DNA of 64,000 bases from Acidimicrobiia bacterium (GTDB taxonomy: Bacteria > Actinomycetota > Acidimicrobiia > Spongiisociales > Spongiisociaceae). The stretch spans positions 3,215,251 through 3,279,250 of the forward strand of contig OY760694.1 of NCBI GenBank assembly GCA_963663955.1. Reading direction: 5' to 3'. Under the pieces are notes generated by a model. It had not been told where the DNA came from and did no database searches. It saw nothing but the letters and a program-made list of their open reading frames with translations. The translations under genes and the position numbers were made by a program. Within the stretch, counting starts at the first letter, position 1, and every line of letters starts with the position of its first letter. Below, one piece after another: positions 22,768-53,828 of this stretch.

Positions 22768-24873
22768 TCAGGCCGCTTCGAAGTCCCGTGTGTTCGACAG
22801 GTCGAACGTGTTGGCGTGTGAGGGTTCGGGCGAGTACTCGGTGTAGCTGATCCGGGTATACGCTCCGGAATACAGTGCCTCTTCGAATGCTTCAAGACGT
22901 ACTGGCGCACCTCTCACTGTCAACCGATCGTTGTCATCGTATTGCACCAGCTTGGGGCTACGCGCGTCGTGGAGGATCAGATTCCTCGTCACGTCCTGTA
23001 CCAGGATGGGCACACCCAGAACAGATCGTCCTTCAGCCTGGGGCTTAGCCCAGTAGTGCGCCATGGGCTGGGCCGTAACCTCACCTGCCGTTTGGGCTGC
23101 GATGGTCTCTGTGTCAGGTTCGGCTCCGGTCCATATGTACCGGAGCGACGCCACACCCCGCTGGTCGGTGTTTCTAACGGTTGGGACGGTTCCGACTCCG
23201 TGGCCGTCATCAGATGTGAATGCGATGCTTTCCCCAACCACCGGGGCGCCGTACTGGTCGGTGAGGACCCCTGTCACCACGTTCACGGGACCCGGCCCGG
23301 ATCCGGTGAGTTCGTGGTAACGCATTACCTGCCTGAGCCGGAGGGTGGTAGCCCTAGGCGCTTGCTCGGACCATGTAACCGGGGCGTCTAGCGTCGAGCC
23401 ATCTCCGCCCGCCACTCCAAGGGTGCTCCGGTCGATCACAGTAAGACCCTGGACCGACACGTCGATGTCCATCGTGGTCTCATCACCACCCGTAGACGGG
23501 TCCGGATCGGACGCTTGGTAGGAAACAGTAACCCTGCCCCCGACATCTGTCCGGTAGGTTTTGACACTGGTCAGGTCTCTCACCCCGTTCCTTACATACG
23601 TGGTGGAGACTTGTACCCGGTGTCCCGCTTCGCCAACCGCTCGACCGTCTTCGTCGACCAACTGGAATACGAACCCGATTGGCACACCAAACATGAGTGC
23701 CTGGGCGGTGGACCGCATATCGTCGGCGACCAGGACCGACGAGGCTGGTTTCAGCACCTGGACGTCGGCCATAGCAGCTGTAGTAGTAGCCAACCGGAAG
23801 CGGCTCCCCTGAGAACCCGTCCAGGCCCACAACCTTATGTTGTCGACTGGTTGAAGGACCACCCGAACGTTACCGGACTCATCAAGCTGCTGATCGGACC
23901 CATCAATCGTGCACACCCGTGCTCCGACCGTGGCCTGCACTCCCTCCCGGCAGGCGCCATCTGCGCCGAACAACTCGTAGGGATCGTCGGCCGAGGTGGA
24001 AAACATGTCTATTCGCATCCCGGTCCGGGGCTGGAACCTGGCGTCACGAACGGAAACCTGCACCTCGAGCGTGTCGCCGGCGGAGATAACCGAGGAGGCG
24101 CTCTGGATCGATATGCCTTCCGGGCGTGAGTTCGTATGGGCTAAGGCCCGGGTCACGAATAGGGCCATCTGGCCCCTCGTTAGGAGGGTTCGGGGCGAGA
24201 AGGTCGTGGCAGTAACCCCCACCGTGATGCCCATCTCGTACATCACCCTCACCGCGGTGACCACCAGCTCGGACTGGTCGCCCAGATCCTGAAACACGTC
24301 ATCGTCCGGCGTGACCACAGATACGTCCGTCCCGCCGGGACCGGTAGGGGCCAAATTGAGGAAGCGGTACAGGAAAAGGGCCATCTGGCGGCGATCCATC
24401 GGGCTATCCGGGTGGAAGGTAGTAGGCGAGGTACCCCGAGTAATCCCCATGGTCGCCAGTTGATTGATGGCGACTTGGATGTGAGGAGCATGGTGGGCGA
24501 TATCCTGGAACCCTTGATCGATTGCCACAGGCACAGCGATTCCGGCCGGCCCGGAGGCCCGCACCAAGAACATCGCCATCTGCCAGCGAGTTATCGGATC
24601 GTCGGGTGCGTATCGGTTGGCCGTTTTTCCTACCGAAATGCCGTAGTAGGCAAGACAATTGATGCCCTGTTCGGCGAAATGGCCGGCTACATCCAGGAAT
24701 CCGGCTGAAGCATTAGCGGCTCCCGTACACGCCGAGTAGACAGCAAGATGGTCCGGTTGGCCGTCAACAGCTCGGACCGGTGACGGAGCCGCCACCACCG
24801 ACGCAGCGACCAAAGCGGCAAGCAAGACCACTGCCGTACGTTTTGAGGCCCATGTGCTCATACACTCTGTCAC
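22768..24873 (-). CDS. large secreted surface protein: signal peptide + 3 SLH-like repeats + Ig-like/beta-rich C-terminal region (paralogue 1)
   Basis: It has a signal peptide. The SLH block begins YSAC...AGFLDVAGHF..INCLAYYGI...ITRWQMAMFLVRA, with two further SLH repeats. It also has the HTNSRPEG motif shared with the other four paralogues. Confidence 0.7.
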   Translation of the reverse strand: MTECMSTWASKRTAVVLLAALVAASVVAAPSPVRAVDGQPDHLAVYSACTGAANASAGFLDVAGHFAEQGINCLAYYGISVGKTANRYAPDDPITRWQMAMFLVRASGPAGIAVPVAIDQGFQDIAHHAPHIQVAINQLATMGITRGTSPTTFHPDSPMDRRQMALFLYRFLNLAPTGPGGTDVSVVTPDDDVFQDLGDQSELVVTAVRVMYEMGITVGVTATTFSPRTLLTRGQMALFVTRALAHTNSRPEGISIQSASSVISAGDTLEVQVSVRDARFQPRTGMRIDMFSTSADDPYELFGADGACREGVQATVGARVCTIDGSDQQLDESGNVRVVLQPVDNIRLWAWTGSQGSRFRLATTTAAMADVQVLKPASSVLVADDMRSTAQALMFGVPIGFVFQLVDEDGRAVGEAGHRVQVSTTYVRNGVRDLTSVKTYRTDVGGRVTVSYQASDPDPSTGGDETTMDIDVSVQGLTVIDRSTLGVAGGDGSTLDAPVTWSEQAPRATTLRLRQVMRYHELTGSGPGPVNVVTGVLTDQYGAPVVGESIAFTSDDGHGVGTVPTVRNTDQRGVASLRYIWTGAEPDTETIAAQTAGEVTAQPMAHYWAKPQAEGRSVLGVPILVQDVTRNLILHDARSPKLVQYDDNDRLTVRGAPVRLEAFEEALYSGAYTRISYTEYSPEPSHANTFDLSNTRDFEAA

Positions 24874-27736: not shown

Positions 27737-28819
27737 ATGAGAATCAAACGCTTCGAGATTAGTGCCTTTAGGACATTCGACCATCTCACGTTGGGCGGGT
27801 TACGTCGAGTTAACCTCATCGCAGGACAGAACAACGTTGGAAAGACGGCCCTGCTCGAAGCGTTGTGGCAGTTCTCGGGGCCCAATCAACCTGATATCGG
27901 TCTACGGCTTGATCAGTTCCGAGGAATCCATTGGATCGAGGAAGATTACCTGTTTGCCAATTTGTTTCATGGTCGTGATACATCCAAGCCTATAGAACTG
28001 AGAGCCCATGGAGATGCGTCCGTGACTCCGCGTGTTCTAAGGATCGAAACAAGGACTCGAACAACGTCTCGGACTCCCTTAAACGGAAACGGTGCCTCCG
28101 AGGCAATCATGCCAACCCTCGTAGATAGGCCGCATGAGTTAGTCCTTACGTACGAGGATGGATCGGCAGAATATGAATCCCGCGGATGGTTCGAACCCAG
28201 CCGTACACCTGCCGGGGTCCAGAACTCCTTTGAGACACAGAGACATCAGATTCCAGGTGGGCTGGTCGCCGCGTATTTCAGTCCGAGCCACCGCAATCCC
28301 TCGCAGGAAGATGCTGATCGGCTTGGGCGCCTTCAAGTAAGGGACGCCGATGCAATGGTCGTTGACGCCCTCAGGCCCTTCGAACCACAACTGCAACGGC
28401 TGGTGACCGTATCTGTCAGTGGAATACCCGTAATCCACGCGGATCTGGGACAGAACCGTCTCATTCCGATGGGTCTCCTGGGCGACGGTATGCAACGCTT
28501 GCTTTCCCTGACTCTCGCCTTTGACGTCGCGTCAGGGGGAATGATTCTGGTCGACGAGATCGAGAACGGGATCCACCACTCCAAACTAGACTACTTGTGG
28601 CGAGCCATATCGGTCTTTTCAATGAGGTTCGACGTTCAGGTATTCGCCACCACCCACAGCGCCGAATGTGTAAGTGCCGCGCATGAAGCTTTTGAGCATG
28701 AAGACCACTACGACTTTCGTCTCATCCGCCTGGATCGGCTCAACGGGGCAACCGTGGCCAAGTCATTCGACCGGTCTACTCTGGGCACCGCCATAGAGGC
28801 GGACTTCGAGGTGCGCTAG
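27737..28819 (+). CDS. ABC-like ATPase of a two-gene ATPase/TOPRIM module (copy a)
   Basis: Contains MRIKRFEISAFRTFDHLTLGGLRRVNLIAGQNNVGKTALLEAL (Walker A), ILVDEIENGIHHS (Walker B) and FATTHSAEC. GGAGG lies 7 nt upstream of the ATG. Confidence 0.75.
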   Translation: MRIKRFEISAFRTFDHLTLGGLRRVNLIAGQNNVGKTALLEALWQFSGPNQPDIGLRLDQFRGIHWIEEDYLFANLFHGRDTSKPIELRAHGDASVTPRVLRIETRTRTTSRTPLNGNGASEAIMPTLVDRPHELVLTYEDGSAEYESRGWFEPSRTPAGVQNSFETQRHQIPGGLVAAYFSPSHRNPSQEDADRLGRLQVRDADAMVVDALRPFEPQLQRLVTVSVSGIPVIHADLGQNRLIPMGLLGDGMQRLLSLTLAFDVASGGMILVDEIENGIHHSKLDYLWRAISVFSMRFDVQVFATTHSAECVSAAHEAFEHEDHYDFRLIRLDRLNGATVAKSFDRSTLGTAIEADFEVR

Positions 28820-29436
28820 TGGTCCGAACTAAACCGGTCAGCATCAAGGAGGCCGGCCTCGTATTGGTTGAGGGCAAGGATGACCAGAAGTTTCTCCACC
28901 GCCTGAGTGATCACATGGAACTCAGGGGACTCCAGATTCTCAGCTATGGAGGGAAGGACACACTTCGAGATTACCTAAGGACCATACGCCGGCTGCCCGG
29001 GTACGAAAGCGTGCAACATCTCGCAATCGTTCGCGACGCGGACGATAATGCTGAGAACGCCTTCCGCAGTGTCCGCAGCGCGCTGATCGACGCGGAATTA
29101 CCGGACCCGCCAAGACCGGATGAAATGGCATCGTTGCCAAAAGTTGGGCTAAAAGTCTCGGTGATGATCATCCCCCCTGGCTTTCAACGGGGCTGTTTGG
29201 AAACCTTGCTTTGGCAGATTATCAAGACCGCCTCATCCGCGAATTGTATAAGCGAGTATATTGATTGTGCTGAGATCCCTGCCAGAGGAACCCGGCGCGA
29301 TAGAGCGATGGTCCACGCTTACATAGCCGCCCAGCACAAGCCGGGCCTCAAGATCGGTGAGGCCTCCCAGGCTGGCTACTTTGACTTGGACCATGCTGCA
29401 CTCCGCCCTGTCAAGACCTTCTTAGCAGAGTGGTAG
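28819..29436 (+). CDS. small TOPRIM-like protein (copy a)
   Basis: The GTG start shares one nucleotide with the ATPase TAG stop (TAGTG). It has the conserved Glu motif LVLVEGKDD and the acidic D-x-D cluster AIVRDADDN, matching the TOPRIM pattern. Confidence 0.6.
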   Translation: MVRTKPVSIKEAGLVLVEGKDDQKFLHRLSDHMELRGLQILSYGGKDTLRDYLRTIRRLPGYESVQHLAIVRDADDNAENAFRSVRSALIDAELPDPPRPDEMASLPKVGLKVSVMIIPPGFQRGCLETLLWQIIKTASSANCISEYIDCAEIPARGTRRDRAMVHAYIAAQHKPGLKIGEASQAGYFDLDHAALRPVKTFLAEW

Positions 29437-29708: not shown

Positions 29709-31766
29709 TTGGCCGTCCGGGATCATCCCCCGACATGGTCCGCTATAGCGACCGCTTCGTTGGTACTCGGGTCGTTGCTAGTCGCGTTCGCGGTGTCCGC
29801 TATCTACGATATCGGCCCTCGGGAGCACGCGAACCCTTCTGTGGTCTCACCCACGACTGGAGATATCTCGACCACCTCCGCGACCGCGGTGGTGACCGTG
29901 ATGACAACTCTTGCTGGAGTTGAGCCCGGAGTTGGATCGGGAAACGAGCAAGACAGTGGCTGCTTCCTTGGGGACGAATGGTCAGATGGAATCGATTCGG
30001 CTGTCCCGGCTGACTTGTTCGGAGGTATTACGCCCCATCATTATGTATGGTCGCCGGATTGCGCCTTGCTGGCCGTGAGCATTGGGTCGAGAACCTATTT
30101 CGTGCGGGCCGGGTGGACGAGCGATCAGCAGGTCGTCGGCAGCCTCGATCGCGCCAGGGATATTGCTTGGGCACCTAACGGTGATCGCCTCGCCTACGTA
30201 AGGAACTCGGAGATCTTCACGGTTGATGTCGACAGCGACATCAGCAAGCAACTGACCCGGAGTAACGACGACCCTCTGTTTCGGGAGGAGTTCTGGTATC
30301 GAAGCGTCGATCCCGCCTGGTCGCCCGACGGCACCCGAATCGCCTTCACCAGCAACCGCGACGGCGATGACGAGATATACACCCTAAAGGTGGATGACGG
30401 GGGCGAACCGTCCCAGATGACATCCAACAGCAGGAGAGATCGGACGATCGAACCGGACTGGTCACCCGACGGAGTTACGAACCTCGTTTCGGATCGGGAT
30501 CCCGCCTGGTCACCCGACGGCACCCGAATCGCCTTCACCAGCAACCGCGACGGCGATGACGAGATATACACCATGAACCCCGACGGGACACTGGTCACCC
30601 GGATCACTCGCAACGAATTCTCGGACTGGGAGCCTTCCTGGTCACCCGACGGCACCCGAATCGCCTTCACCAGCAACCGCGACGGCAATCTCGAAGTTTA
30701 TACCACCAATGCCGAGGGCGGCGACCTGCGGCGGATTACACATAACGAGAACACCGACCGGAACTCCTCCTGGTCTCCGGATGGTTCTTATATCTTCTAT
30801 CACAGCCTTGCCGACGGGGAGGTCCGGTTTCGGGCCGCACGGGCGAATGCATCCTTGCCGGAGCTCGAATACCCGGCGACGAGGCCGTCAGGAGTGACTT
30901 CCCCGGATTCGGCGTGTGAGGCCTTGAATGACGGCTTGCGTCGGGATGGGGCTCTCGAGGCGCCGGTTCGATCGAATCGATTGCTGGCGGTTTACCGTTT
31001 CGGGTGGTCGCCCGACTGCCGGACTGTTCTCGGGATCGGTGACAATACGGACAGTTACGCCTTGGTGAAGATGGGGTTGGACGGAAGTCACTCCGAACAT
31101 CTCACCAACGACGGCTACTGGTATTCGAACCCGACCTGGTCACCGGACGGAAGCCGGATTGCGTTCGAGAGCGACCGTGACGGGAGTTACGAGATATACG
31201 TCATGGACAGCACCGGCGCCAATATCCGCCGGCTCACCCACCTGAACGATCGGCAACGGAACCCTGTCTGGTCACCGGACGGCTCGGCTATAGCCTTCCT
31301 GAGGGGGTCAGGTGAGTGGTCAGAGATATGGACTATCCGAGCCGATGGTAGGGACCTCCGGAAACTCACCGACAATAGGTTCTTCGACGGAGCCCCGAAC
31401 TGGTCACCGGACGGGACCCGCATCGCCTTCACCAGCAACCGCGACGGCGACAACGACATCTACACCATGAACCCCGACGGAACCAACCCCCACCAAATCA
31501 CCCACAACAACACAGACGACCGCAACCCCGTCTGGTCACCGGACGGGACCCGCATCGCCTTCACCAGCAACCGCGACGGCGACAACGACATCTACACCAT
31601 GAACCCCGACGGAACCAACCCCCACCAAATCACCCACAACAACACCGACGACCGCAACCCCGTCTGGTCACCGGACAGCACCTACATTTCGGTCACGAAC
31701 GGCGATTCTAACGACCCTGTTTACTTCGTATTGCGAGCCGACTCGACCAACCCGGCCCGTTCTTGA
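29709..31766 (+). CDS. membrane-anchored PD40/TolB-like beta-propeller repeat protein
   Basis: It has an N-terminal TM helix followed by at least 10 repeats of WSPDGTRIAFTSNRDGDxEIYTMNPDG. Confidence 0.75.
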   Translation: MAVRDHPPTWSAIATASLVLGSLLVAFAVSAIYDIGPREHANPSVVSPTTGDISTTSATAVVTVMTTLAGVEPGVGSGNEQDSGCFLGDEWSDGIDSAVPADLFGGITPHHYVWSPDCALLAVSIGSRTYFVRAGWTSDQQVVGSLDRARDIAWAPNGDRLAYVRNSEIFTVDVDSDISKQLTRSNDDPLFREEFWYRSVDPAWSPDGTRIAFTSNRDGDDEIYTLKVDDGGEPSQMTSNSRRDRTIEPDWSPDGVTNLVSDRDPAWSPDGTRIAFTSNRDGDDEIYTMNPDGTLVTRITRNEFSDWEPSWSPDGTRIAFTSNRDGNLEVYTTNAEGGDLRRITHNENTDRNSSWSPDGSYIFYHSLADGEVRFRAARANASLPELEYPATRPSGVTSPDSACEALNDGLRRDGALEAPVRSNRLLAVYRFGWSPDCRTVLGIGDNTDSYALVKMGLDGSHSEHLTNDGYWYSNPTWSPDGSRIAFESDRDGSYEIYVMDSTGANIRRLTHLNDRQRNPVWSPDGSAIAFLRGSGEWSEIWTIRADGRDLRKLTDNRFFDGAPNWSPDGTRIAFTSNRDGDNDIYTMNPDGTNPHQITHNNTDDRNPVWSPDGTRIAFTSNRDGDNDIYTMNPDGTNPHQITHNNTDDRNPVWSPDSTYISVTNGDSNDPVYFVLRADSTNPARS
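31401..31664 (+). repeat. 2 x 132-bp near-perfect tandem duplication inside the PD40 gene
   Basis: Units 31401-31532 and 31533-31664 differ at one base (aacacagac versus aacaccgac). Shorter near-identical blocks occur at about 30310, 30500 and 30640. Confidence 0.85.
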
Positions 31767-31815: not shown

Positions 31816-33984
31816 TTGAGCATGCCAACCGACGCGGGAGGCCGGGTTGATTCCACGGGACCGCTCCTTAAGAAGGTTCCTTTGGCAGGACCCAGCGGGA
31901 GCAGCATCTCCCGACCACCGGACGCTCCGGTCGTAGAACCAGGTACGGACCCTTCAGGCAGATCGAAACCTCGCTATCCAGGACTCGACGGCCTCCGAGG
32001 AGTGGCTGTCGCGCTAGTGGTGGGCTTCCACCTCTGGCCCGACGGTGTCCAGGGTGGCTGGCTAGGAGTGAGCCTGTTCTTCACGCTATCCGGTTACCTG
32101 ATCATCGGGCGGATCGACAGCGAAATCCTATCGACCGGTCGCCTACGCCTCGGGGCCTTCATGGAGCGCCGGGTGCGTCGCCTCATGCCCGCCGCGCTCC
32201 TCACAATCTCCATGACCGTCGCTCTCACGGCTCTGCTCACCGACCAGGCTCTAAGAGGAGTCGGCATCGATGCCATGGCGGCCGTTCTGAACTTCTTCAA
32301 CTGGCATGCCGCCACCGACCCGGGTGGCTATGCAGCCATCTTCGATGCAACCAGCAAACCGCTGGAACATTTCTGGTCGCTCGCCATTGAGGAGCAGTTC
32401 TACCTGATCGTGCCCGCCGCAGCCGGGGTTGTGCGACGAACAGGTCTGGTGGTTTTCGCCATGACCGTTATCGGCCTAGGCGGATTAGGCCTGTGGTGGG
32501 GATCCCCGGACGCCTACGTCGCTACGCCGGTCCGGTCCCTGGAAATCGCCGCAGGCGGTGGCCTAGCCATCATGATTGCTCGCTCGGCAGGCATAAGCCG
32601 CCTAGTGCGCTGGGAACCGGGGCTCCGCCGCTCCACACGCGTGGCAATGGTTATGGCGGTCCTGGTTGCTCTGGTGGTCTTCGAATTGGCCACCATCGGG
32701 CTCGGGCCGACCGCTGATCCGGTGTTCCGTGGTTTCCCACAGTTCATGAGCTTGTGCTGGGTGGTGCTGATAGCTGCATCACTACCCGGAGGCCCCCTGG
32801 AACGCCTACTCTCCTTAAGCCCCCTTCGCTGGTTGGGAACCCGCTCTTACGCGATCTATCTCTTCCACTGGCCGTTGATCGAATTGACCACACTCGGTCC
32901 GGGGCAGATCCTCCTCCTAACTCTCGGGCTGGCCGAACTGTCTTACCGGCTGGTGGAGATGCCGGTAAGGCAGAGCATGAACACTCGATCGCTGTTGGTG
33001 TTAGGGGGCTTGTCGATAGTCGTTGCCGTCGGGTCAGCCTTGGTTGTCCTAACATCTGAACCTGCTCGTGCCGTCGGCGATCGCCTGGATCTAACGGCCG
33101 AACTACCCGAATGGCTTGAAGAACCTCCACCCGCCGACCGGGCTCCGGCTGGGGAGCTACCTTCGTCAGCCTCGACGACCTCGGAACCTGAAACAACCCG
33201 GTCCGACGAGCCGACCTCGGCTGCCCTGTTGACCGGCTCATTATCCGTCCCCGACGCGGATCCGGAAGTCCCCATCAAGACCCTCCGCCCTCCGATCGTC
33301 ACGGTTCTGGGCGACTCTACAGCGGTACACATCGCCGACGGGCTCAGGCGGTGGGCTGACAGTTCCCGAGCGATGGCGGTGGTAGACCGGGCGTTGGCGG
33401 CCTGCTCTCCCGTGAGTACCGGTGACCTGCCCTGGAAAGTCATCAGGACAGGTGATGGCGGCAACCCACGAAATCTGGTACACCGTGACGAGCCCTGCCG
33501 TTTCCACGATATCGAACCCGGAACCGACCTTGTGTTGGTGGTGGACCACGCCATACCCTTGGTGGACCACCAGCGCCTAGACGGCTCCTGGGCGTCGATC
33601 CTGGACAACGACCTCTCTACCGACCTTGAGAAGGTCTATCGTGATCTGGCATCCGAAGTGCGGGGGATCGGCGCCCGCCTGGTGCTGACTACCACACCCC
33701 GCTGGATCCCACCGCCTGATGATCCCGCTCCGGCCCCGCCACACGCCGACCCGGCTCGAGCCGCTGCGTACAACCGATTGGTCAGCGACTTGATCTCGGA
33801 TCTTGCATCCGAATTCGGGGAACACACCGTCGGCCTGCTCAATACCGCCGCCCTGCTCGATGCGTCTGGGTACGACGGTCCCTACGGCCGATCCGATGGC
33901 GCTCACCTCGACTTCGGTCGGTCAATAGATTTCGCCGCTGAGTTTCTAGGTCCCGCCCTCCAGGAATTGGCTTCCGCCCGCTGA
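31816..33984 (+). CDS. OafA-type acyltransferase-3 with a C-terminal SGNH-like domain
   Basis: Contains YPGLDGLRGVAVALVVGFHLWP plus multiple TM segments, then a Pro/Ser linker, then VTVLGDSTA (the SGNH block I position). Confidence 0.75.
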   Translation: MSMPTDAGGRVDSTGPLLKKVPLAGPSGSSISRPPDAPVVEPGTDPSGRSKPRYPGLDGLRGVAVALVVGFHLWPDGVQGGWLGVSLFFTLSGYLIIGRIDSEILSTGRLRLGAFMERRVRRLMPAALLTISMTVALTALLTDQALRGVGIDAMAAVLNFFNWHAATDPGGYAAIFDATSKPLEHFWSLAIEEQFYLIVPAAAGVVRRTGLVVFAMTVIGLGGLGLWWGSPDAYVATPVRSLEIAAGGGLAIMIARSAGISRLVRWEPGLRRSTRVAMVMAVLVALVVFELATIGLGPTADPVFRGFPQFMSLCWVVLIAASLPGGPLERLLSLSPLRWLGTRSYAIYLFHWPLIELTTLGPGQILLLTLGLAELSYRLVEMPVRQSMNTRSLLVLGGLSIVVAVGSALVVLTSEPARAVGDRLDLTAELPEWLEEPPPADRAPAGELPSSASTTSEPETTRSDEPTSAALLTGSLSVPDADPEVPIKTLRPPIVTVLGDSTAVHIADGLRRWADSSRAMAVVDRALAACSPVSTGDLPWKVIRTGDGGNPRNLVHRDEPCRFHDIEPGTDLVLVVDHAIPLVDHQRLDGSWASILDNDLSTDLEKVYRDLASEVRGIGARLVLTTTPRWIPPPDDPAPAPPHADPARAAAYNRLVSDLISDLASEFGEHTVGLLNTAALLDASGYDGPYGRSDGAHLDFGRSIDFAAEFLGPALQELASAR

Positions 33985-38687: not shown

Positions 38688-38789
38688 TAAGTGAACCTAA
38701 ACTCGACGAATAATTACGCAAAGACGCAAAGATACGAATAGACAAATAAATACGCAACAAACTTCTCCGGCTGGCGGTATGGTGCTTCT

Positions 38790-42030: not shown

Positions 42031-42041
42031 GGTCGACGCAT

Positions 42042-42257: not shown

Positions 42258-42263
42258 TCTCGA

Positions 42264-43143: not shown

Positions 43144-43650
43144 TGTTGGCGATCAGCGAAATTCCCCAGAGTCGATCATTGAAATTCCCCACCCTGGGTG
43201 TGTTGGTGAGTCTAGCTGGCGCCTCCTTTCGGTCGGTGTTTTCTGGCTTGGGCGTGGTAGACGCGTAGCCAGTAGCTGTCTCCCGAAATGGTGAACACGA
43301 CGCTTCGGTGGAGTAACCGGTCCAACATGGCAGCAGCGATGGTGCTGTCGGAGAAGATGTCTCCCCAGGCGGCGACGCTACGGTTGCGGTCAGGATTGTC
43401 GATCCTTTCTGGTAGCGGCGGGAGATGACCTGGAACAGGGAGGCGGCGTCCTCGGCGGGTATTGGCAGATATCCCAATTCATCGACTATAAGCACTTCGT
43501 GACCGGAGAAGAGGTGCATGGTTGGGACCCGGCGTCCTTCGAGGGCGGCTGTTGGGGCCGCGGACTGGGAGGTCAGCGGCGGTAGTGTAGTAGACCCTGT
43601 GACCGCCATCGACCGCAGCGGCGACCCAGGATGTAGTCGGTCGGTACGGC
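43144..43650 (-). mobile_element. istB: IS21-family remnant: 5'-truncated, frameshifted istB plus terminal repeats
   Basis: Three frames give AAAVDGGHRVYYTTAADL / HEVLIVDELGYLPIPAEDAASLFQVISRRYQKGSTILTA / NRSVAAWGDIFSDSTIAAAMLDRLLHRSVVFTISGDSYWLR. The terminal direct repeats GGGGAATTTC x2 lie at 43160-43200. Confidence 0.6.
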
Positions 43651-43652
43651 CG

Positions 43653-44282
43653 TCATTCGAACAGTCGCTGTATCCAGTCTACAAGGGTCCGCGCAGGCAC
43701 CGACATGGTGCTGAGCTGGGAGTGCTGCGTTGCAGCGCTTAGCAGCCCACCCGGAGACCGTAGGGCTGCTGTCCATGCATAAACCTGCGCTTTGACCGTG
43801 TGTGAATCGCTGAACTTCTTGTGTTCTGCCGGAATCGCCTGGATATACTCTCTCGCTAGTGGCCAGATCGGATCATCATCCGGAATCAATGTGGCTACGA
43901 AGTCTTCCAATTCGCCGGAGGACTGATTGTCCGGCATGAGCCACACACCTACTTTGGGGGCGCCATCAAGAACGGTGCCTCCATGTTCAGGTTCGGACGG
44001 TATGGGAGAACCCAACACCGGAGCCTTACTGACCTCCTGCGCGATATCACCCCACTTCTCGAACCGGTCACTATTCGCATCGGCCATGATCCCGAGTGCC
44101 ATCCGCCCTTCGACGACCAACTGTTGTCGAATCTCTACTCTCAGCCCTGACCACCCGCCACAGGCGCGTATATCGAAGCTGGGCAGACCGGGGTAGGCCT
44201 TGCAGATATGTCGGACAATTCGCTCGTCACTTGACCCTTCGACCAAGAGAAGCCTTGCCAACTGTGTCCCCGTCCTTCGCAT
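43653..44282 (-). CDS. small TOPRIM-like protein (copy c, divergent)
   Basis: Has LLLVEGSSDERIV and GIMADANSD. At 209 aa it is similar in length to copy a. Confidence 0.5.
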   Translation of the reverse strand: MRRTGTQLARLLLVEGSSDERIVRHICKAYPGLPSFDIRACGGWSGLRVEIRQQLVVEGRMALGIMADANSDRFEKWGDIAQEVSKAPVLGSPIPSEPEHGGTVLDGAPKVGVWLMPDNQSSGELEDFVATLIPDDDPIWPLAREYIQAIPAEHKKFSDSHTVKAQVYAWTAALRSPGGLLSAATQHSQLSTMSVPARTLVDWIQRLFE

Positions 44283-44431
44283 TCAGCCGCGCCTGACGGG
44301 AGGGAGAGACCGGGAAGTATCTGCCAGCCTGGACAGGTCTATCCCCAACCGGGTGCATCCGGCACGCTCTACAGTTGCGGTCCTGACCCGGGTGTTAAGA
44401 AATCGATACAGTGCCATGGGAGGGCTCAGGG

Positions 44432-45553
44432 TTAGCGGACTTCGATCAGTCGCTCGGTTGCAACGGTTAGATCTCGCTCGGAATACTCGACCGCCATTAG
44501 ATGCCCGTCCCGTTGGGACAGCCGTACCAGGTGACCTTCGACCTCGGCTGATTCGGCAGCTGCATTCGCGAAACCACTTATGCAATCGAAGCTGTGGGTG
44601 GTAGCGACCACCTGAACGTTATTCTTGTGAGCAACGCGGAGTACCATCCGCCAGAAATCCTGCTGGATTGCATGGTGGAGTCCATTCTCGGCTTCGTCGA
44701 TAAGCAAGAACCCATCCGTACAATTAGCGAGAGCAGCCGCGACGCCGAACATGCGAAGGGCACCATCTCCTAGGCTTCTTAGCGGAACCCGTTCGTCATG
44801 ATCGAACTTCAAGAGCGGCCGTACCCCATCCCTAACATGCTGACGTCCAGGCAGCCTCCATCTGGCGCTATTGTCGCCGACCATAGCTATACGTGACACG
44901 GGTTTTCCCGCTACCAGGCTGAGAGCTTCGGAGACGTAAGGTTCATCAGGGGTTAGGGCGACGTTGTCCCACAAGCGCGCTATCTCGGAATTGGTCAGGA
45001 CACCTGGCCCGATTGATTCGCACTTATGTCGCGCCGGCAAGTCACTACCGTGTCGCGCGGATCTCTTCGATACCCCAGGTACCTGTGGAAACACAGCTAC
45101 CACGTTTCCTCTGTCGGCGACCTCCACCTCAATTAGCCGGACCGGTTCCTCTACGAATGGATCAGGGTCAAAAAGCTCAAAACCGTCCGCGGAGAAAGCA
45201 GGGGCTCGAATAGTAACTGCATTCGAACCGTCGACCGGTCCAATAAAGATGGTTGCCTCGTCTGACACTATCCTGTTGTAGAAGAGGGCTGACCAATCCT
45301 CCACGACCCTCCGAGGTGTGTCAGGATCACCATCTTGAGTAACGATCTCATCCGAGTGGCTCAGCACAGACTGGAGCGAAGCTCGCCGTCCGCGCGACGC
45401 GAACACCCGAATCGCATCCAACACTGTGGTCTTCCCGATGCTGTTCCGCCCGGCCAACAGCGTCACCCGTCCCAGACGAGGAATAGTCAAGTCGCGCAGC
45501 CCGCGGAACCCGCGAATCGTAAGGTCGGGTAGAATTAGGCGACCATCAGACAT
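44432..45553 (-). CDS. ABC-like ATPase of the ATPase/TOPRIM module (copy c, divergent)
   Basis: Contains MSDGRLILPDLTIRGFRGLRDLTIPRLGRVTLLAGRNSIGKTTVLDAI, LLIDEAENGLHH and ATTHSFDC, with a C-terminal ..IEVR like copies a and b. The ATG at 45553 is preceded by GAAGGGAG. The 92-aa upstream extension in the track ORF is implausible. Confidence 0.7.
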   Translation of the reverse strand: MSDGRLILPDLTIRGFRGLRDLTIPRLGRVTLLAGRNSIGKTTVLDAIRVFASRGRRASLQSVLSHSDEIVTQDGDPDTPRRVVEDWSALFYNRIVSDEATIFIGPVDGSNAVTIRAPAFSADGFELFDPDPFVEEPVRLIEVEVADRGNVVAVFPQVPGVSKRSARHGSDLPARHKCESIGPGVLTNSEIARLWDNVALTPDEPYVSEALSLVAGKPVSRIAMVGDNSARWRLPGRQHVRDGVRPLLKFDHDERVPLRSLGDGALRMFGVAAALANCTDGFLLIDEAENGLHHAIQQDFWRMVLRVAHKNNVQVVATTHSFDCISGFANAAAESAEVEGHLVRLSQRDGHLMAVEYSERDLTVATERLIEVR

Positions 45554-46014
45554 CGACTGGGCTCCCTTCTCCAGTAGCTCTAGTGGCGCTGCCGACCTTA
45601 TCTCCCCGGTAAGCCCTGTGACCATAGCTACTGATACGAGGATAGCGTGGCGCGAATCCCGACAGTACTCGGCAACACCGGATAATCTCAACGGGAGTCG
45701 CCGACACATCAACCTGCTCTGATTTGGAACTCTTGGGTGAAACTTCACCGCCCCTGGCCTCGGGTCCTTCGGCAGTTTCGCCATCGCAACCCTCTTATCT
45801 GCCGTGTATCCGCTTCTCTTCGATACCAAACTTCGTCTTGCGCCGAGCCAGGCCGACGAGTCGGTCCGGAAATAGATGCTTCCAAGCGCGTGGGTTCTGT
45901 CTATCCCGCTTACCAGTCGTAGCCACGGCCATCCCCACGCTCAAAGCTTCACACGACAACAGCGTCCTCGGGGAGAAGCACTGCGAGGACGGAGCGCTAC
46001 AGCCTCCAGACCTG

Positions 46015-46566
46015 TTATGTCAGCGAGTTGACTGGATTGGGTTCGGATTGACGGATCAGCTCGTCTCGGAGGGCGATGGCAAGCACGTCGAGAACCTTGC
46101 TTCGGTGCACCCCGTGCTCGTAAGCGGAGCGGTTGATCCTTGCCAGAAACTCGCGGTCCGGCTTGAAGTCGCGGTTGGCGAACTCGAAGCAGAACTCTTG
46201 AAGATCATAGAGATCACTGCCCTCAACTCGATCTTTGAGTTCACGAGACGCGACCCTCGCCCACCCGTCAGCGCCCATTTCTACCGCGATCCGCTCGCCT
46301 AGTTCGGAAAGTCGAAGCGGCCTATATTCTTGAACGGTAACCGGCTGTAGCTGACGCAGTATGTGCCCAATGTCTGCGCGGATGTCTCGAATGTCCTGCT
46401 GTATCTCTCCCAGCACAAGCCGAAGACCATCCCGGTCGGCATCAACTTCACCCGTCCACCGGATGAACTTGACCAAGTACCTGCCTCCGAGGAGTAGCGC
46501 CGTCACGACGCCGGCAATGGCTGCGTAAGTGGAGGGGTTCTCCCACATGACAATCTCTCCTCCCAA
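46015..46566 (-). CDS. single-pass membrane protein, paralogue of 34318-34815
   Basis: It has a TM helix (YAAIAGVVTALLLGG) and ends with a block that includes the identical VLDVLAIALRDEL. Confidence 0.55.
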   Translation of the reverse strand: MGGEIVMWENPSTYAAIAGVVTALLLGGRYLVKFIRWTGEVDADRDGLRLVLGEIQQDIRDIRADIGHILRQLQPVTVQEYRPLRLSELGERIAVEMGADGWARVASRELKDRVEGSDLYDLQEFCFEFANRDFKPDREFLARINRSAYEHGVHRSKVLDVLAIALRDELIRQSEPNPVNSLT

Positions 46567-46602
46567 CCACCAAGGTACTTCTCATAGAGCTTTACTTCCA
46601 GG

Positions 46603-46835
46603 TGCCACTACCCCACAGCGCTGAATGCGTCCCGGGCCGCGCGTGATCACTTCGAGGCCGACCGCTACAACTTCCGCTTCATCCGGCTCGATCGTGTCAA
46701 CGGCACAACCGTAGCGAAGCCGTTCGGCAGAACCACGCTAGCTACTGCCATCGAAGCAGGCTTCAAAATCCGGTAGTGTCCCTACACCAGCCCTTTCGGA
46801 TAGCCGAAACCGTACTTTGCTGGTTAACACGCAAG
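46603..46835 (+). pseudogene. decayed 3' end of an a/b-type ATPase plus the first ~60 nt of its TOPRIM partner
   Basis: It aligns at DNA level with 41535-41760. A 1-nt insertion creates an in-frame TGA. The junction ATCCGGTAGTG is retained. Confidence 0.6.
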
Positions 46836-46882
46836 GGTGGAATTGCCCCGCTTCGGTGGTCATTCACCAATTGCGGAGTGAG

Positions 46883-47053
46883 TTACCGCTCCCTTCGCAC
46901 GCCCTTAAACGGCCCGCCCGACTTCTTCGTTGCCATGAACCGCCCTGTCGAGGCGTCGCGCTTCGTCCACTGACCGGTCTTCGGGTTCCGAACTTGGCTT
47001 CGACCCGAGACTGCCCCATATCGACCACCGCCCCTCGCTCCATTCTTAGCCAT
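46883..47053 (-). CDS. 56-aa basic hypothetical protein
   Basis: Below the track cut-off. It reads MAKNGARGGGRYGAVSGRSQVRNPKTGQWTKRDASTGRFMATKKSGGPFKGVRRER. I recall similar small proteins in other bacteria but cannot name a family. Confidence 0.4.
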   Translation of the reverse strand: MAKNGARGGGRYGAVSGRSQVRNPKTGQWTKRDASTGRFMATKKSGGPFKGVRRER

Positions 47054-47298
47054 GGTGATACACCCTGTTATCGGCTCGCTGTCGACACCACTCTAAACGA
47101 ATTGTTCCCCCATTCTTGGTTCTGGTGACATCGCGTATTCATACGGATCACAATCTAGAACACTCGATTCCCTGGCCCCAGGCGCTGGACTCAAAGCTAC
47201 GTTGCGTCCGCTGAAGACGTGACAGACTATGTGACAAGGCGAGTCAAAGTGATAGCCCAGAGGCTGCCGATGGCCAGCAGAAGGCTGATCCTCCAGGG

Positions 47299-47386
47299 AC
47301 GAAATCGGTAGTGTCCCCTACACCAGCCTGTTCGAATCCCCGAAACCGCACTCCTGCTGGTTTAGGCAAGGATGACGAAGGGTTGG
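47299..47386 (+). pseudogene. second decayed ATPase/TOPRIM junction fragment
   Basis: The segment ...gaaatcggtagtgtcccctacaccagcc...ctgctggtttaggcaaggatgacgaaggg aligns with 41688-41775. The catalytic GAA (Glu) codon context is destroyed. Confidence 0.5.
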
Positions 47387-47526
47387 TGGTAAGGGTCGAG
47401 GTTAGACCCATCAATGGTCTACTGACCTGTGTGTGACTGCACGAATCTACACCCTGATAGTTAGTCTTGAAGGTTCTTCACCTAGAATGAGTTGAAACGG
47501 TCCACCTAAAGCACTCGGAGGCTGTA

Positions 47527-48793
47527 GTGCTCCTTGGATTTCAGGTCACTAATCACCGCTCGTTTCTTGATCGGGTGGATTTCTCCATGATAGCGGTGGA
47601 CGAAGATCGGGAAGCCGCGCGCAGTTACGAGCGGCTCTCCGAGCAAGTGTTGACGGTCGCAGGGATCTACGGTCCCAACGCTTCGGGAAAGTCCAACCTG
47701 CTCGATGGGATTGCTTGGCTGTCTACCGCCGTCCGAACATCCTTCCGCGGTTGGGACGAGTTCATCCCGCGAGACCCTCACCTGATGGGTGACGGCCCTT
47801 CGAAACCGTCCGTCTTCGACATGTCTCTGGTGGTCGGCGGCGTCGAGTACGAGTACCGGCTTGTGGTTGACGACTCAGCCGTGCTGTACGAGAGACTCCA
47901 CGGCTATCCAGAGGGCCGGCGGAGACGGTTCTACGAGCGCGACGGGGACGACTTGCGGTTTGCCCGCGGCCTGGGTGGAGCCCGCGGGGTGCTAAGTCTC
48001 CTGACACCAACCGTACTCGTGCTTTCCGCCGCCACGCGTTTGCGCGTACCCGTTGTACACGACGTTGGACGTGCCATCTCGGGAATCGGCATGCTCGGGG
48101 TTCGTTCATGGATGCCGTCCTTCTTCAGCACAACGCGACGCTTGTTCACAGGTCAGGGCACGCATCCTCAGGTGGCGCTGTTCGCAGATAAGGCCACGGA
48201 CCGGGATGTTGCTTTGGAGCTACTGCGATGGGCCGATCCCGGAATCGTGGATGTGGACTTTGTCGAACAAGACACGAGCGAAGGCCAACCTGGTAAACCT
48301 CACGCTCGGACAGCCCGCCCTTACTGGCAGTTCGTTCGCCGAATAGCCGATGAAGACTACTTCATCGGCTTCGGTGACGAATCAGCCGGAACGCGGGACC
48401 TGGTTCCGCCTGCTAGGACCGGCGCTCAGCGCTCTTCGGAGGGGCCAGGTTCTGTTGTTCGATGAGATCGACGCGAGTCTTCACCCGCGGCTCTCCAGCC
48501 AACTGATCCAACTCTTCCAGGATCCGGAGGCGAATCCCCATAATGCTCAGCTCGTATTCACAACTCACGATACGTCTCTTCTGAACGTTTTGAACCGCGA
48601 CGAGGTTTGGTTGACGGAAAAGAGCTTGGACGGGGTCTCGCAGTTGATCGCTCTTGCAGAGTACGGGGGTGAGAGGGTCAGGAAGTCGCTGAATCTCGAG
48701 AGGGCGTATCTTCAGGGTAGGTTCGGAGCTATCCCGGAAGCCGACCAGATCACGATCCGCAACGCTCTCGGTCTTGCCCTTGGCGGATCGTGA
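47527..48793 (+). pseudogene. AAA_21-like ATPase (Abi/RloA-type) with one frameshift
   Basis: The N-terminal part reads MLLGFQVTNHRSF...IYGPNASGKSNLLDGI. The C-terminal part, in another frame, reads WFRLLGPALSALRRGQVLLFDEIDASLHPRL...FTTHDTSLL...DEVWLTEK. The shift maps to the GGG run at 48395-48397. Confidence 0.6.
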
Positions 48794-49185
48794 TTGCAAA
48801 GTCGCGACAACGTGGGCGAAGGAGGCGAAGACCACGGATAAGGGCGTAGATGGAGAGACTTACATGCCTTTGCGGGAGACAGCGACCCGACGGGCTCGGC
48901 GACTCGCTAGGAAGCACGCGCAGCTAGGAACCGGTTCCCGCATGACAACCCATCCTCGGAAATGTATCTCCTTCTCGAGACAATTGATCCTGGGGACTAG
49001 GCGTAAGCACAGCCTTCGACACGCCTGCGGCAATCGACCGATGGGCCGCCGAGCCGCCCACGAATCTCAGAGCCGGTCCTGTGGACCCGATTCTGGACCG
49101 GTGCCGGCCCACCGCTGAAAGGCCCAAACGAACAGCGTCTTGGGAAGAAGCACTGTGATGACGAGCGCCGGGATTCGATGTGAGC

Positions 49186-49221: not shown

Positions 49222-49260
49222 TTCGTCGTGGGTTGGCTGATGCTTCGCGAACCCGGTGGA

Positions 49261-51467: not shown

Positions 51468-51507
51468 AAAAAGGGAACCCGGCCACAAACGGCCGGGTTC
51501 CCTTTTT
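51468..51507 (-). terminator. rho-independent terminator of paralogue 5
   Basis: AAAAAGGGAACCCGGCC-acaaac-GGCCGGGTTCCCTTTTT lies 21 nt past the stop. A T-run follows on the transcribed strand. Confidence 0.7.
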
Positions 51508-51527
51508 CTCAGGTCGTAGAAGATCGA

Positions 51528-53828
51528 CTAGTTGTTGGTAGTGATGGTGAAGCTATTGATATCATCATCGTCGTCACCCATCACAACGGTAATTGAGTCG
51601 GCTTCGTTATCACTGGTATCGGGATCGTCAGCGCTAAGTCGGTCTTCAAAGACGTCCAACGTAATCGGATCAGTCCCATCCCTAAACTGATCTCCAGCCT
51701 TGTAGGTAACCAACCTCGGTGTTCCAGCGTCCCCGATAATAATCGTGTTGTTGTCCGTGTCTACTACCAGAACGGTCTGTGTTGTAAACGTTTCACCAGC
51801 AGACACAGGCCCAGTAGCCCAGTAATGGGTGATGGCATCGGCCTCAACCTTAATGGTATCATCCGACTCTGTGCAGTCGCTACGACTGTCAAGACACTCT
51901 CCTGCCACCGTCACGGTGTATACCGCATCAAGACTTTCATTACCGGCAGCGGTAGCTCCGCGTGTGTATGACTTCGTCGCAACACCACTACGACTTGTTG
52001 TTCGATGGTCTGCCGCGTTCGTACCAGTACCCGCTTCAGGACCATTATCATCGTCGTCGTCGGTCTCGCCGCCACCTAGGCCTAGGGAGCCTCCTGTACC
52101 TGGATTGTCAACGTCTGACCAGAACGCAACCTTCTCGTTACGCACAGGATCGCCGTACTGATCAACCAACGTCGCCCGGACCGTATTCCGAACTCCATCA
52201 TCATTGGCCAGGTGATAAGACATCGCCTGACTCAGGTGCAACGACGTAGGTTCCGGGTCCGCGTCGGACCAGCTGATCACAATGGTGACACTCGTAGCCA
52301 AATCGTCCTCGCTATCCTCACCTGGATCGTTGGCCATCAGCTTGAAGTCCGACTGCCCAGTAATGGTCAACGTCAAGGTGATCATGTCGCCGTCGTCGTC
52401 CGAGGGATCGTCTGAGGTATAGGATACCGTGAATCGACCATTTGCGTCCGTGGTCTTAGTGTCCACGCTAGTCCGCGTATCGTCTCTCTTTGCTCCATCA
52501 CCTGGGGAATCCCCATCGGTCGTATCCGCAATAACGGATCTTATGGTGACCTCTTCGCCATCACTCGCTACTGGATCGTCGTTCTTGTCGGCTATCTGGA
52601 CGGTATAGGTGACCTTATCACCGAACTTCAAGTTGCTCGCGTGTGTCTTGGTGTCGTCGCTAATTAGCGTAGATTCGCGACCCAGCATGACATCAATAAC
52701 CGCAGAAACGGAGTCATCTTCGTCAATATTGAACTCGTCGCCGGATTCTCCGGTCCATGCCCACACCGTAAGGTTCCCGGGATCCGCTGGGAGCGTGACG
52801 GACGCCGTAGCATTACCGTCTGGCTCGGTCGCAGGGTCATCATTGCCGATAACACAACCACCTGCTCCTTCTCGGATGTTTTGGTTTTCAAAGCATGTTC
52901 CGTCGTCGTTCCACGCCTCATCCGGCATAGTGGAACTGAAGACCTCAACGATTGCATCTGCAACCGGTTGATGGTCTCCGTCGCGCACCGACACTTGGAA
53001 GTCGTGTTCCTCACCAACAGTCGTTAACGAATCAGGCATGGACTGCATCGAGATACCGGCTGGACGGGCGTTGGTATGATCCAGCGCTCTGGTCACGAAT
53101 ACTGCCATCTGCGCGCGGCTCACAAGAGCACTCGGCGTGAAGGTGGAACCGTCACCGGTACCGGATGCCACACCAAGTTCGTACAGGTTGTTGATGGCGT
53201 CGTATGCCTCGAACGGAACCATTGCGAGGTCGTCGAATGGGGTATCGACGGTCACCTCATCGCCTTCCCCATCAAGAACATTGCCGTCGTCATTAAGGCT
53301 GTCGATTTCAGCAACGTTCAGGAGGTTGTCAAGGATGACAGCCATGTCTTGGCGACTCACCGCACCTGACGGGTTGAAAGCGTTGTCGTGACCGGACATT
53401 ATTCCGGCGGCGACCGCCTGGTTGATACCATCCTGAATGGCGTCGGTCCAGTTGCCGATATCGCCCAACCCTTGATCCTCAGGATCGTCCAATTCAACTC
53501 CGGCGACCGTGGCGGCCCTGACCATGAACAGAGCCATCTGAGCGCGAGAAATCGAATCGTTGGGCGAGAAGACACCCGCCGACGTTCCTACCGTGATCCC
53601 GTAATGGGCTAAACAATTCGCTTCATCCGCTGCGAAGTTGCCGGCCATGTCGGTGAATCCGGCATCTTCGGTTGCAGCAGCTACACAAGCCGAGTAGTCG
53701 GCCGGTGAGGTTACCTTCTCATCCCCTGCGGCGACCGCAGGCACCGCGGAAACGGCAAGAAGTGAACCCACCAAAGCCAGCACGGCGAGCACAGCCAACC
53801 GCGAACGCTGCCTTGCTTTCAGGGGCAT
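51528..53828 (-). CDS. SLH + Ig-like surface protein (paralogue 5, Asp-rich)
   Basis: It has a signal peptide, YSACVAAATEDAGFTDMAGNF..ANCLAHYGI, HTNARPAG, a very acidic C-terminal half and YKAGDQF. Confidence 0.7.
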   Translation of the reverse strand: MPLKARQRSRLAVLAVLALVGSLLAVSAVPAVAAGDEKVTSPADYSACVAAATEDAGFTDMAGNFAADEANCLAHYGITVGTSAGVFSPNDSISRAQMALFMVRAATVAGVELDDPEDQGLGDIGNWTDAIQDGINQAVAAGIMSGHDNAFNPSGAVSRQDMAVILDNLLNVAEIDSLNDDGNVLDGEGDEVTVDTPFDDLAMVPFEAYDAINNLYELGVASGTGDGSTFTPSALVSRAQMAVFVTRALDHTNARPAGISMQSMPDSLTTVGEEHDFQVSVRDGDHQPVADAIVEVFSSTMPDEAWNDDGTCFENQNIREGAGGCVIGNDDPATEPDGNATASVTLPADPGNLTVWAWTGESGDEFNIDEDDSVSAVIDVMLGRESTLISDDTKTHASNLKFGDKVTYTVQIADKNDDPVASDGEEVTIRSVIADTTDGDSPGDGAKRDDTRTSVDTKTTDANGRFTVSYTSDDPSDDDGDMITLTLTITGQSDFKLMANDPGEDSEDDLATSVTIVISWSDADPEPTSLHLSQAMSYHLANDDGVRNTVRATLVDQYGDPVRNEKVAFWSDVDNPGTGGSLGLGGGETDDDDDNGPEAGTGTNAADHRTTSRSGVATKSYTRGATAAGNESLDAVYTVTVAGECLDSRSDCTESDDTIKVEADAITHYWATGPVSAGETFTTQTVLVVDTDNNTIIIGDAGTPRLVTYKAGDQFRDGTDPITLDVFEDRLSADDPDTSDNEADSITVVMGDDDDDINSFTITTNN

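Follow-up and report, generated by a model that had tools for sequence, protein, structure and literature searches.

We report the analysis of a cluster of surface-protein genes from an Acidimicrobiia bacterium (Spongiisociaceae), which occupies positions 22768-53828 of a stretch of 64,000 nt ('the window') taken from contig OY760694.1 (GCA_963663955.1, positions 3,215,251-3,279,250). Five genes for S-layer homology (SLH) proteins, named P1 to P5 by rising coordinate, are interleaved here with genes for anti-phage defence. The locus is, in our judgement, probably a conserved cluster of five anciently duplicated SLH surface-protein genes, the spacers of which are landing sites for defence cassettes that turn over between strains. 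The products of P1-P5 would be exported through the Sec pathway and tethered to the cell wall through three SLH repeats at the N-terminus, from where each would project a stalk of four beta-sandwich domains of the immunoglobulin (Ig) or macroglobulin (MG) type. The genes themselves would be differentiated paralogues under purifying selection, not interchangeable, fast-varying cassettes, and the two long gaps between them, together with the P1 flank, would represent recent strain-specific insertions or replacements.

The five window proteins were compared by tblastn with 74 related loci (numbered with the prefix L), on which the array counts given below are based. These loci bear the titles of Acidimicrobiia metagenome-assembled genomes (MAGs), many of them Candidatus (Ca.) Spongiisociaceae or Ca. 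Aldehydirespirator, and include sponge bins such as APA_bin_98; a 75% homologue, P0002, lies on a 4.08-Mb contig. The close relatives are L075 and L076, which come from other runs of the same ERR38874xx series and are about 92% identical to the window in DNA, and the strain L077, which is 99.2% identical across P2 and P1.

Open reading frames (ORFs) are present exactly where a first-pass annotation of this DNA had placed five minus-strand genes (Table 1). For P3, the ATG at 37372 is the likely start in preference to the TTG at 37432, as it gives a protein of 701 amino acids (aa), the same length as the L075 orthologue. The proteins are alignable end to end at pairwise identities of 33-46%, P3 and P4 being the closest pair. 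The signal peptide that the annotation had assigned to all of them is borne out as a predicted Sec-type N-terminus in 5/5, judged from sequence features (a basic start, a hydrophobic stretch and an A-x-A-type site), and its YS[AS]C...GF.D block, three SLH repeats and HTN[AS]RP[AE]G motif are likewise found in every protein, with Pfam SLH matches at E values of 1e-19 to 2e-24 scored as two to three separate stretches in each protein. The C-terminal Y-[DK]-x-x-D-x-F motif, described as common to all, is present in four, since in P1 L replaces F. All five proteins are acidic (pI 4.05-4.94), and P5, singled out for its acidity, is indeed the extreme (pI 4.05, net charge -104). The centre had been described as strongly diverged. 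Identity among the five is 50% in the SLH region, 69% in the linker motif, 31-32% in the two central domains, 43% in the Big_1-like domain and, at its lowest, 29% in the C-terminal domain; the centre is therefore less conserved than the SLH region and only moderately more diverged than the rest.

Each of the SLH repeats carries the motif [TSNPD]R-x-[QS]-MA (e.g. TRAQMA, TRRQMA), that is TRxQ and not TRAE. The TRAE-type motif of an SLH repeat binds pyruvylated wall polymer, and P1-P5 may be anchored to the wall by such a polymer; no PS_pyruv_trans (CsaB) gene is found among the scanned ORFs of the 64-kb window. The assignment of P1-P5 as SLH-anchored surface proteins is supported.

An AlphaFold2 (AF2) model was made for P4 from an alignment of 67 sequences and has a mean predicted local distance difference test score (pLDDT) of 89.9, with values below 50 for residues 1-5 and 17-30. 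The model has a disordered signal peptide, then a helical SLH region (residues ~63-242) with three helix-pair units and, finally, four beta-sandwich domains at about residues 251-372, 376-477, 489-605 and 611-700. As modelled, P4 thus has the architecture of a genuine S-layer protein, namely an SLH anchor followed by several beta-sandwich domains, and P1-P5 may assemble into an S-layer lattice. The Ig-like assignment of the central regions is clear from the AF2 fold and weak in profile searches, where the Big_1 match at residues ~520-600 passes in P2 only (36.1 against a gathering cut-off of 34.9), lies below the cut-off in P1, P3 and P4 and is not reported for P5. A PDB profile search gave the SLH regions of SbsB (4aq1, 1.5e-15) and Sap as the closest solved structures, and a Foldseek search of the P4 model against the PDB returned only strings of macroglobulin-type domains (C3, alpha-2-macroglobulin and ECAM, with E values down to 5e-12).

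Two established families were considered for P1-P5. Membership of the alpha-2-macroglobulin/complement C3 family was rejected, as there is no C[GLA]EQ thioester motif and proteins of ~700 aa are too short to hold a thioester domain; nor do the proteins belong with the invasin/intimin Big_1 adhesins, as Big_1 passes in a single paralogue and there is no outer-membrane barrel or lectin domain. The P4 ectodomain (residues 251-701) has 241 related 50%-identity clusters among 1.84 billion and the match starts near residue 250 in nearly all of the 241, so the combination of SLH region and ectodomain is a fixed architecture and the family a small one. The source records name its members solely 'S-layer homology domain-containing protein', and in the literature we found no paper on this protein family or array, nor on S-layers in Acidimicrobiia.

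Surface proteins of this build might instead serve in contact with the host, as adhesins that bind the sponge extracellular matrix or help to avoid phagocytosis, in a family expanded by the symbiotic lifestyle. The family is found almost only in MAGs of sponge- or coral-associated Acidimicrobiia, by record title (Ca. Spongiisociaceae, Ca. Aldehydirespirator and bins with the prefixes APA, RHO, CAR and SB06xx, which we take to denote sponge or coral hosts), although a few homologues (L060, L065) lie in MAGs whose titles suggest no sponge source. Matches of the Big_1 and invasin_D3 type are typical of adhesins, and in relatives the same loci encode further SLH proteins, with RCC1 or fn3 domains, as well as a leucine-rich repeat (LRR) fragment; however, the proteins have no recognisable ligand-binding tip domain (e.g. 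a lectin) and their architecture fits S-layer proteins equally. We regard the adhesin explanation as somewhat unlikely; it does not conflict with what our preferred explanation says of structure.

The case for an ancient, conserved cluster rests on the relatives of the window. A neighbour-joining tree groups P1-P5 with sequences of other genomes in five distinct clades, one for each window paralogue, and orthologues are closer to one another than any within-genome paralogue. All five have orthologues in APA_bin_98, at 53-69% identity, and less similar ones in other genomes. P1 has an orthologue at 63% in L006 and P2 one at 70% in L078. APA_bin_98 has seven copies, all co-oriented on a single contig and arranged as P5 (53%), P4 (56%), X, Y, a gap of ~9.6 kb, P3 (61%), P2 (68%) and P1 (69%). 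OZ253564.1 and CBDCOH010000002.1 have the same co-oriented order P5-P4-(X,Y)-P3-P2-P1, and parts of it occur in OZ219922.1 (P5-P4-X) and L078 (P3-P2-P1). Tandem arrays are the rule, with two or more full-length copies in 42 of the 74 related loci; neighbouring copies are less than 600 bp apart in 38 of 78 pairs and 5 kb or more apart in just four. The synteny extends beyond P1, where small SLH genes are followed by a YjeF-type gene; these correspond to 13943-14746 and 10641-12044 of the window, and L007, L008 and L078 likewise have the arrangement of P1, small SLH gene and YjeF. In L006 (9962-22083), the P1 orthologue faces the P2 orthologue in convergent orientation, its strand being opposite to that of the four family copies that come next, so at least one lineage has undergone rearrangement of the array.

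Comparison with the close strains shows purifying selection on the genes overall. Protein identity to L077 is 99.7% for P1, with too few changes for dN/dS, and 99.4% for P2 (dN/dS 0.10), and to L075 it is 91% for P3 (dN/dS 0.11; the orthologue has 701 aa), 92.6% for P4 (dN/dS 0.29) and 85% for P5 (dN/dS 0.42). A flanking gene at 55552-56694 is unusable as a dN/dS control because its L075 orthologue is frameshifted or split, so the controls are nucleotide identities only, of 94-98%. The first-pass annotation had read the locus as one of envelope variation, with alternative S-layer or receptor proteins, and had named conservation, synteny and co-expression of the paralogues in related genomes as an outcome that would tell against it; the first two of these are largely what we find, with orthologues and their order conserved, proteins 85-99.7% identical in close strains and dN/dS at 0.1-0.4, and the reading is not upheld. 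Strain-to-strain variation lies in the intervening DNA and not in the paralogues.

It had also been claimed that every gap between the paralogues is filled with immunity modules, insertion sequences (IS) or miniature inverted-repeat transposable elements (MITEs). This proved too sweeping: P1 and P2 are separated by a plain intergenic spacer of 231 bp and P4 and P5 by one of 161 bp, foreign DNA being carried by two of the four gaps, P3|P2 (8.1 kb) and P4|P3 (11.8 kb). The P3|P2 gap holds, in order, an intact AbiL-like/PDC-M38 pair (pair 1), a PD40 gene, an Acyl_transf_3 gene and an uncharacterised ORF; the defence module makes up about 1.7 kb of it and the greater part is not defence DNA. The P4|P3 gap holds an IS, a truncated AAA_16 gene, AbiL-like pair 2, a DUF2283 ORF, an IstB fragment, AbiL-like pair 3 on the other strand, the remnant of a fourth pair and a split AAA_21 gene. 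No MITE lies within 22768-53828, and a MITE-like family is found at 59.3, 62.8 and 63.2 kb. The physical merging of the array with an anti-phage island does stand, given the three AbiL-like/PDC-M38 pairs and remnants, a PD-T4-4_A-like ATPase, the truncated AAA_16 gene and a Gabija system immediately outside.

On sequence similarity, all three pairs would qualify as two-gene AbiL/PDC-M38 modules, their A genes resembling AbiLi/PDC-M38A and their B genes PDC-M38B and DUF3226. Pair 1 matches the PADLOC profiles AbiLi (1.2e-54), PDC-M38A (2.9e-47) and PDC-M38B (3.9e-15), and the pair 2 ATPase is 67% identical to its own. Homologues of pair 3 (64-69%) adjoin the P1 orthologue in L006. Gabija is represented by full-length PADLOC matches to GajA (3.2e-102) and GajB (4.3e-107), the genes of which overlap by 4 nt (18685-18688), with UvrD domains found by Pfam.

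Close strains carry empty or differently filled sites at these same places. In L075 and L076 the order is P5, P4, a single AAA_16 gene of 397 aa and P3, so arranged that P4 and P3 are 2.2 kb apart against 11.8 kb in the window. The IS5-family element at 37725 is a clean insertion, the L075 site being empty and holding the CTAAG target, and 0.83 kb stands in L075 in place of the 9.6-kb block. One breakpoint of the block falls within AAA_16, which matches the L075 protein at 99.6% identity over 239 aa from the N-terminus and shows no homology thereafter. In L077 the place of pair 1 is taken by 942 bp containing two small ORFs, and the beginning of the PD40 gene is found there at 88% identity, against 99% for the neighbouring P2 and P1. 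The same framing genes thus enclose different cargo, or none, in close relatives, as at a defence hotspot. Cargo in or beside the arrays of other relatives comprises an IS110 transposase (L015), an AAA_21 ATPase (L017), Schlafen/HATPase_c_4 (L005), a molybdopterin oxidoreductase (L020) and, in L078, transposase fragments, Schlafen and an AAA_21 fragment; the interleaving of surface and defence genes is real and recurs in relatives. No recognisable defence gene lies in the 9.6-kb gap of APA_bin_98, which holds small uncharacterised ORFs, an LRR fragment and a phosphoribosyltransferase (PRTase)-like gene. We suggest that the IS5-family element, the decaying AbiL-like/PDC-M38 pairs, Gabija, other P-loop ATPases and the pair of PD40 and acyltransferase genes were all inserted in this way; given that the insertions are strain-specific, the spacers would act as permissive landing sites, and the locus as a defence hotspot framed by conserved genes.

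Some observations weigh against this interpretation. The TM-scores of the Foldseek matches are low (0.14-0.19), so the fold match tells only of a string of beta-sandwiches, a generic tandem-sandwich likeness. The orthology of the paralogues was drawn from a simple neighbour-joining tree without support values. P5 evolves clearly faster than the others, with a dN/dS of 0.86 in its C-terminal domain against L075, and some diversifying pressure on the outermost part of the protein is possible. Finally, ATPase genes of the AAA_15/21 type occur near the arrays of at least five other genomes (L003, L006, L017, L029 and L078), and this recurrence could reflect more than the permissiveness of a hotspot.

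The last two points bear on a different explanation, that the paralogues provide alternative variants of an S-layer or receptor protein and that the whole locus is a functionally integrated phage-resistance unit, in which receptor diversity and immunity are held together by selection and are co-inherited or co-transferred. Defence genes do lie in or adjoin the arrays of the window and several relatives, P5, the most exposed-looking and most acidic of the proteins, has a raised dN/dS, and the paralogue DNA is 91-92% identical to that of L075 and so more diverged than the AAA_16 segment (97.8%) and a flank segment (94%). The paralogues, however, are ancient orthogroups in conserved order, near-identical in close strains while the cassettes differ and under purifying selection overall; the cassettes for their part lie mostly opposite in strand to the paralogues, frequently occur in truncated or split form and vary in type among genomes, and part of the gap cargo is not defence. 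Sponge-symbiont Actinobacteriota are, moreover, reported to be enriched in defence systems (PMC11706023; PMC5649159), so that adjacency by chance or through a hotspot is to be expected. We think such a unit quite improbable. A bolder form of the idea, in which the spacers are a preferred, lineage-wide defence integration site, the surface and immunity genes form one co-inherited phage-resistance supergene and P5 is under diversifying pressure from phage or host, is in our view most doubtful. A role of individual proteins as phage receptors is conceivable; a functional coupling of receptor variation and defence is not supported, and what we see at present is co-location only.

Transcription signals and repeats bear on a further alternative, in which the cluster is a site of recombinational antigenic or phase variation of the Campylobacter fetus sap type, with one expression site fed by silent cassettes, and inverted IS copies might drive inversions. 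The paralogues are tandem and co-oriented, and two inverted IS copies of ~99% identity bracket 16429-37725, a segment that contains P1-P3. We found no conserved 5' recombination boxes shared among the five paralogues, nor invertible-switch or invertible-promoter repeats or signs of gene conversion, and DNA similarity between paralogues is confined to SLH segments of 85-91 nt at 64-74%. The upstream regions of the five genes are mutually unrelated, each gene has its own start and hairpins follow P5 and P1. A locus of the sap type was therefore rejected as extremely unlikely. The genes would appear to be separate transcription units, the grounds for which are the two hairpins and the unrelated upstream regions. 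The hairpin between the P5 stop and the P4 start is, from its sequence, a likely intrinsic terminator; a promoter and terminator consensus scan of 22-38 kb gave counts that were not above shuffled controls, save for the hairpin after P1.

The second IS copy, at 15463-16429, is inverted with respect to the copy at 37725-38691, lies 21 kb from it and is about 99% identical (98.7% by blastn); the two bracket Gabija as well as P1-P3. An IS-mediated inversion of 16.4-37.7 kb was considered and rejected: both flanks of the copy at 37725-38691 are colinear with the L075 empty site, so no such inversion has occurred. This copy might affect the P3 promoter.

Table 1. Coordinates of the paralogues, the DNA between them and the features of the flanks, in the window
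Feature	Position	Strand	Remarks
Second small SLH gene	1592-2191	-	outside the span 22768-53828
Small SLH protein	13943-14746	+	267 aa; conserved flank
Gabija	16889-20619	+	GajA 16889-18688, GajB 18685-20619; between P1 and the conserved flank
Solitary AAA_15/AAA_21 ATPase, PD-T4-4_A-like	20986-22413	-	1e-32; 78% homologue near the L006 array
Terminator-like hairpin	22744-22763		after P1
P1	22768-24873	-	701 aa; surface protein with three SLH repeats and beta-sandwiches; Pfam SLH 1.2e-19
P2	25105-27177	-	690 aa; Pfam SLH; Big_1 36.1 bits, above cut-off
AbiL-like/PDC-M38 pair 1	27737-29436	+	AAA_21/AAA_15 ATPase 27737-28819, DUF3226 protein 28819-29436; Pfam, PADLOC
PD40 (TolB-like) beta-propeller	29709-31766	+	Pfam PD40 1.9e-82; TIGR02800 just under cut-off; not a defence gene
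Acyl_transf_3 membrane acyltransferase	31816-33984	+	722 aa; weak SucT-like match (wall-polysaccharide acyltransferase)
P3	35267-37432	-	721 aa from TTG 37432; probable start ATG 37372, giving 701 aa
IS5-family element	37725-38691	+	967 nt, transposase 37745-38668; Pfam DDE_Tnp_1/DUF4096; ~350 bp upstream of the P3 start
AAA_16 ATPase	38790-39557	+	truncated at ~codon 239; Pfam, L075 comparison
9.6-kb block	39505-49087		0.83 kb in its place in L075 (blastn of L075/L076 against the window)
AbiL-like/PDC-M38 pair 2	40568-42030	+	ATPase intact, DUF3226 protein truncated to 110 aa
IstB (IS21 helper ATPase) fragment	43139-43609	-	Pfam IstB_IS21, profile positions 138-193 only
AbiL-like/PDC-M38 pair 3, intact	43653-45829	-	DUF3226 protein 43653-44282, ATPase 44432-45829; PDC-M38B 2.5e-34, PDC-M38A 4.5e-73
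Decayed modules	46577-48793	+	remnant of fourth AbiL-like junction 46577-46839; split AAA_21 ATPase 47527-48465, 48350-48793
P4	49261-51366	-	701 aa; predicted signal peptide aa 1-29, SLH region ~aa 40-250, HTNARPAG aa 244-251, four modelled beta-sandwich domains aa 251-700
Hairpin	51468-51507	-	perfect 17-bp stem flanked by A and T runs; between P5 stop and P4 start
P5	51528-53828	-	766 aa; most acidic, fastest evolving

Several smaller observations concern the cargo of the gaps. The PD40 gene contains repeat units of 132 nt over 30309-31694, with 98% identity between 31400-31550 and 31532-31682 and 98.7% between 30309-30383 and 30498-30572, which suggests recent duplication or conversion of propeller blades. 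No homologue of the acyltransferase was found near the arrays of the relatives. Two ORFs without a Pfam or NCBIfam match, 34318-34815 (+) and 46015-46566 (-), match the same array-adjacent places in relatives (L002 5656-6062 and L017 17445-17888), protein identity of the first to L002 being ~70%, with the match there spread over two reading frames.

The MITE-like family comprises elements of ~205 nt with the terminal inverted repeats CCCGATTATTCA...TGAATAATCAGGG. In the window, two copies are complete (59327-59531 and 63227-63431, 87% identity) and one is partial (62780-62938). A further copy lies directly downstream of P3 in L075 (16376-16583); the corresponding site of the window lacks it, and the element has therefore moved within this population in recent time. 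Of other repeats, a sequence of 119 nt occurs twice in inverted orientation at 85% identity, at 20615-20733, right after the GajB stop, and at 61104-61222, after an HATPase_c_3 ORF, and a segment of ~150 nt at the 3' end of the solitary ATPase gene (20948-21092) is 81% identical to L075 12422-12571, between P4 and AAA_16; both may be small mobile or terminator-type elements. A direct repeat of 220 nt (56435-56654 and 62940-63160; 88%, 6.5 kb apart) covers the 3' end of ORF 55552-56694 and lies inside ORF 62886-63260.

On the flank beyond P5, the segment 59577-62740 encodes a C5 cytosine methylase (59577-60632), a short HATPase_c_3 ORF (60629-61156) and a protein of 497 aa (61247-62740) with a weak match to the C-terminal domain of Shedu SduA; the defence-rich region therefore reaches well beyond the array. 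Tandem units of 66 nt, in four to five copies of 87-92% identity, lie at 58489-58812 inside an ORF of 181 aa (58336-58881), the sole Pfam hint for which is a weak match to the N-terminal domain of the phage decoration protein pb10. The left flank is otherwise metabolic and carries a Fic/DOC family gene at 8891-10000. An ORF of 176 aa at 12252-12782 has homologues of 52-69% near the arrays of many relatives (L006, L011, L018, L062), and its APA_bin_98 counterpart falls within an ORF bearing a phosphoribosyltransferase domain.

These results give a first outline of what is likely the cell-surface coat of an uncultured and ecologically important sponge-symbiont lineage, made up of five to seven SLH-anchored proteins, and a clean natural case of defence-cassette turnover, with empty sites in strains that are 92% and 99% identical. 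The locus sets up no new principle; it is an undescribed member of the SLH-anchored wall proteins combined with a defence hotspot. A coupling of receptor and defence would be interesting if true.

Comparison with known systems places the two sides of the locus separately. The closest known counterparts of the surface proteins are those of the sap-eag locus of Bacillus anthracis (Sap and EA1) and SbsB of Geobacillus stearothermophilus, which have in common with P1-P5 a signal peptide, three N-terminal SLH repeats, a string of beta-sandwiches and an acidic composition. Sap and EA1, too, come from paralogous genes in tandem that are likely transcribed as separate units. Beyond the SLH region, however, there is no detectable sequence similarity to SbsB, Sap or EA1, the two paralogues of B. 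anthracis compare with five to seven here, and the present host belongs to an actinobacterial class for which we found no described S-layer in the literature.

The slpA/cwp locus of Clostridioides difficile consists of clustered paralogues that share a three-repeat wall-binding module. As here, a common triple-repeat anchor is joined to diverged exposed domains, and the genes form one chromosomal locus the order of which is conserved and which is yet a site of strain variation. The anchor there is CWB2 and not SLH, and strain variation falls in slpA itself (S-layer cassettes), whereas here it falls in the DNA between the genes; in contrast to cwp, the window has no wall-polymer synthesis genes or secA2, the only envelope-related gene being the inserted acyltransferase. 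In C. fetus, S-layer antigenic variation at sap arises by inversion and recombination. That locus, too, is a cluster of S-layer-type paralogues, from which the present one differs in having no conserved 5' recombination region, single invertible promoter or evidence of such rearrangement.

The defence modules resemble AbiL and PDC-M38 in their two-gene layout, with an ATPase similar to AbiLi (1e-54 to 1e-55) and PDC-M38A (up to 4.5e-73) and a partner similar to PDC-M38B (4e-15 and 2.5e-34). They differ from AbiL in that the partner is a DUF3226 protein, for which the AbiLii match is marginal (1e-4), and in that several copies are truncated; PDC-M38 is, to our knowledge, a PADLOC candidate system and not an experimentally tested one. 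As a site of insertion, the array is closest to the core-genome defence hotspots described for the pangenomes of Escherichia coli and Pseudomonas aeruginosa, with which it shares conserved framing genes, a variable and often decayed cargo, empty sites, associated IS or transposase fragments and the clustering of several systems of the same ATPase class. Unlike in those hotspots, the framing genes here are the members of one family of surface-protein paralogues, and several adjacent spacers of a single array are used.

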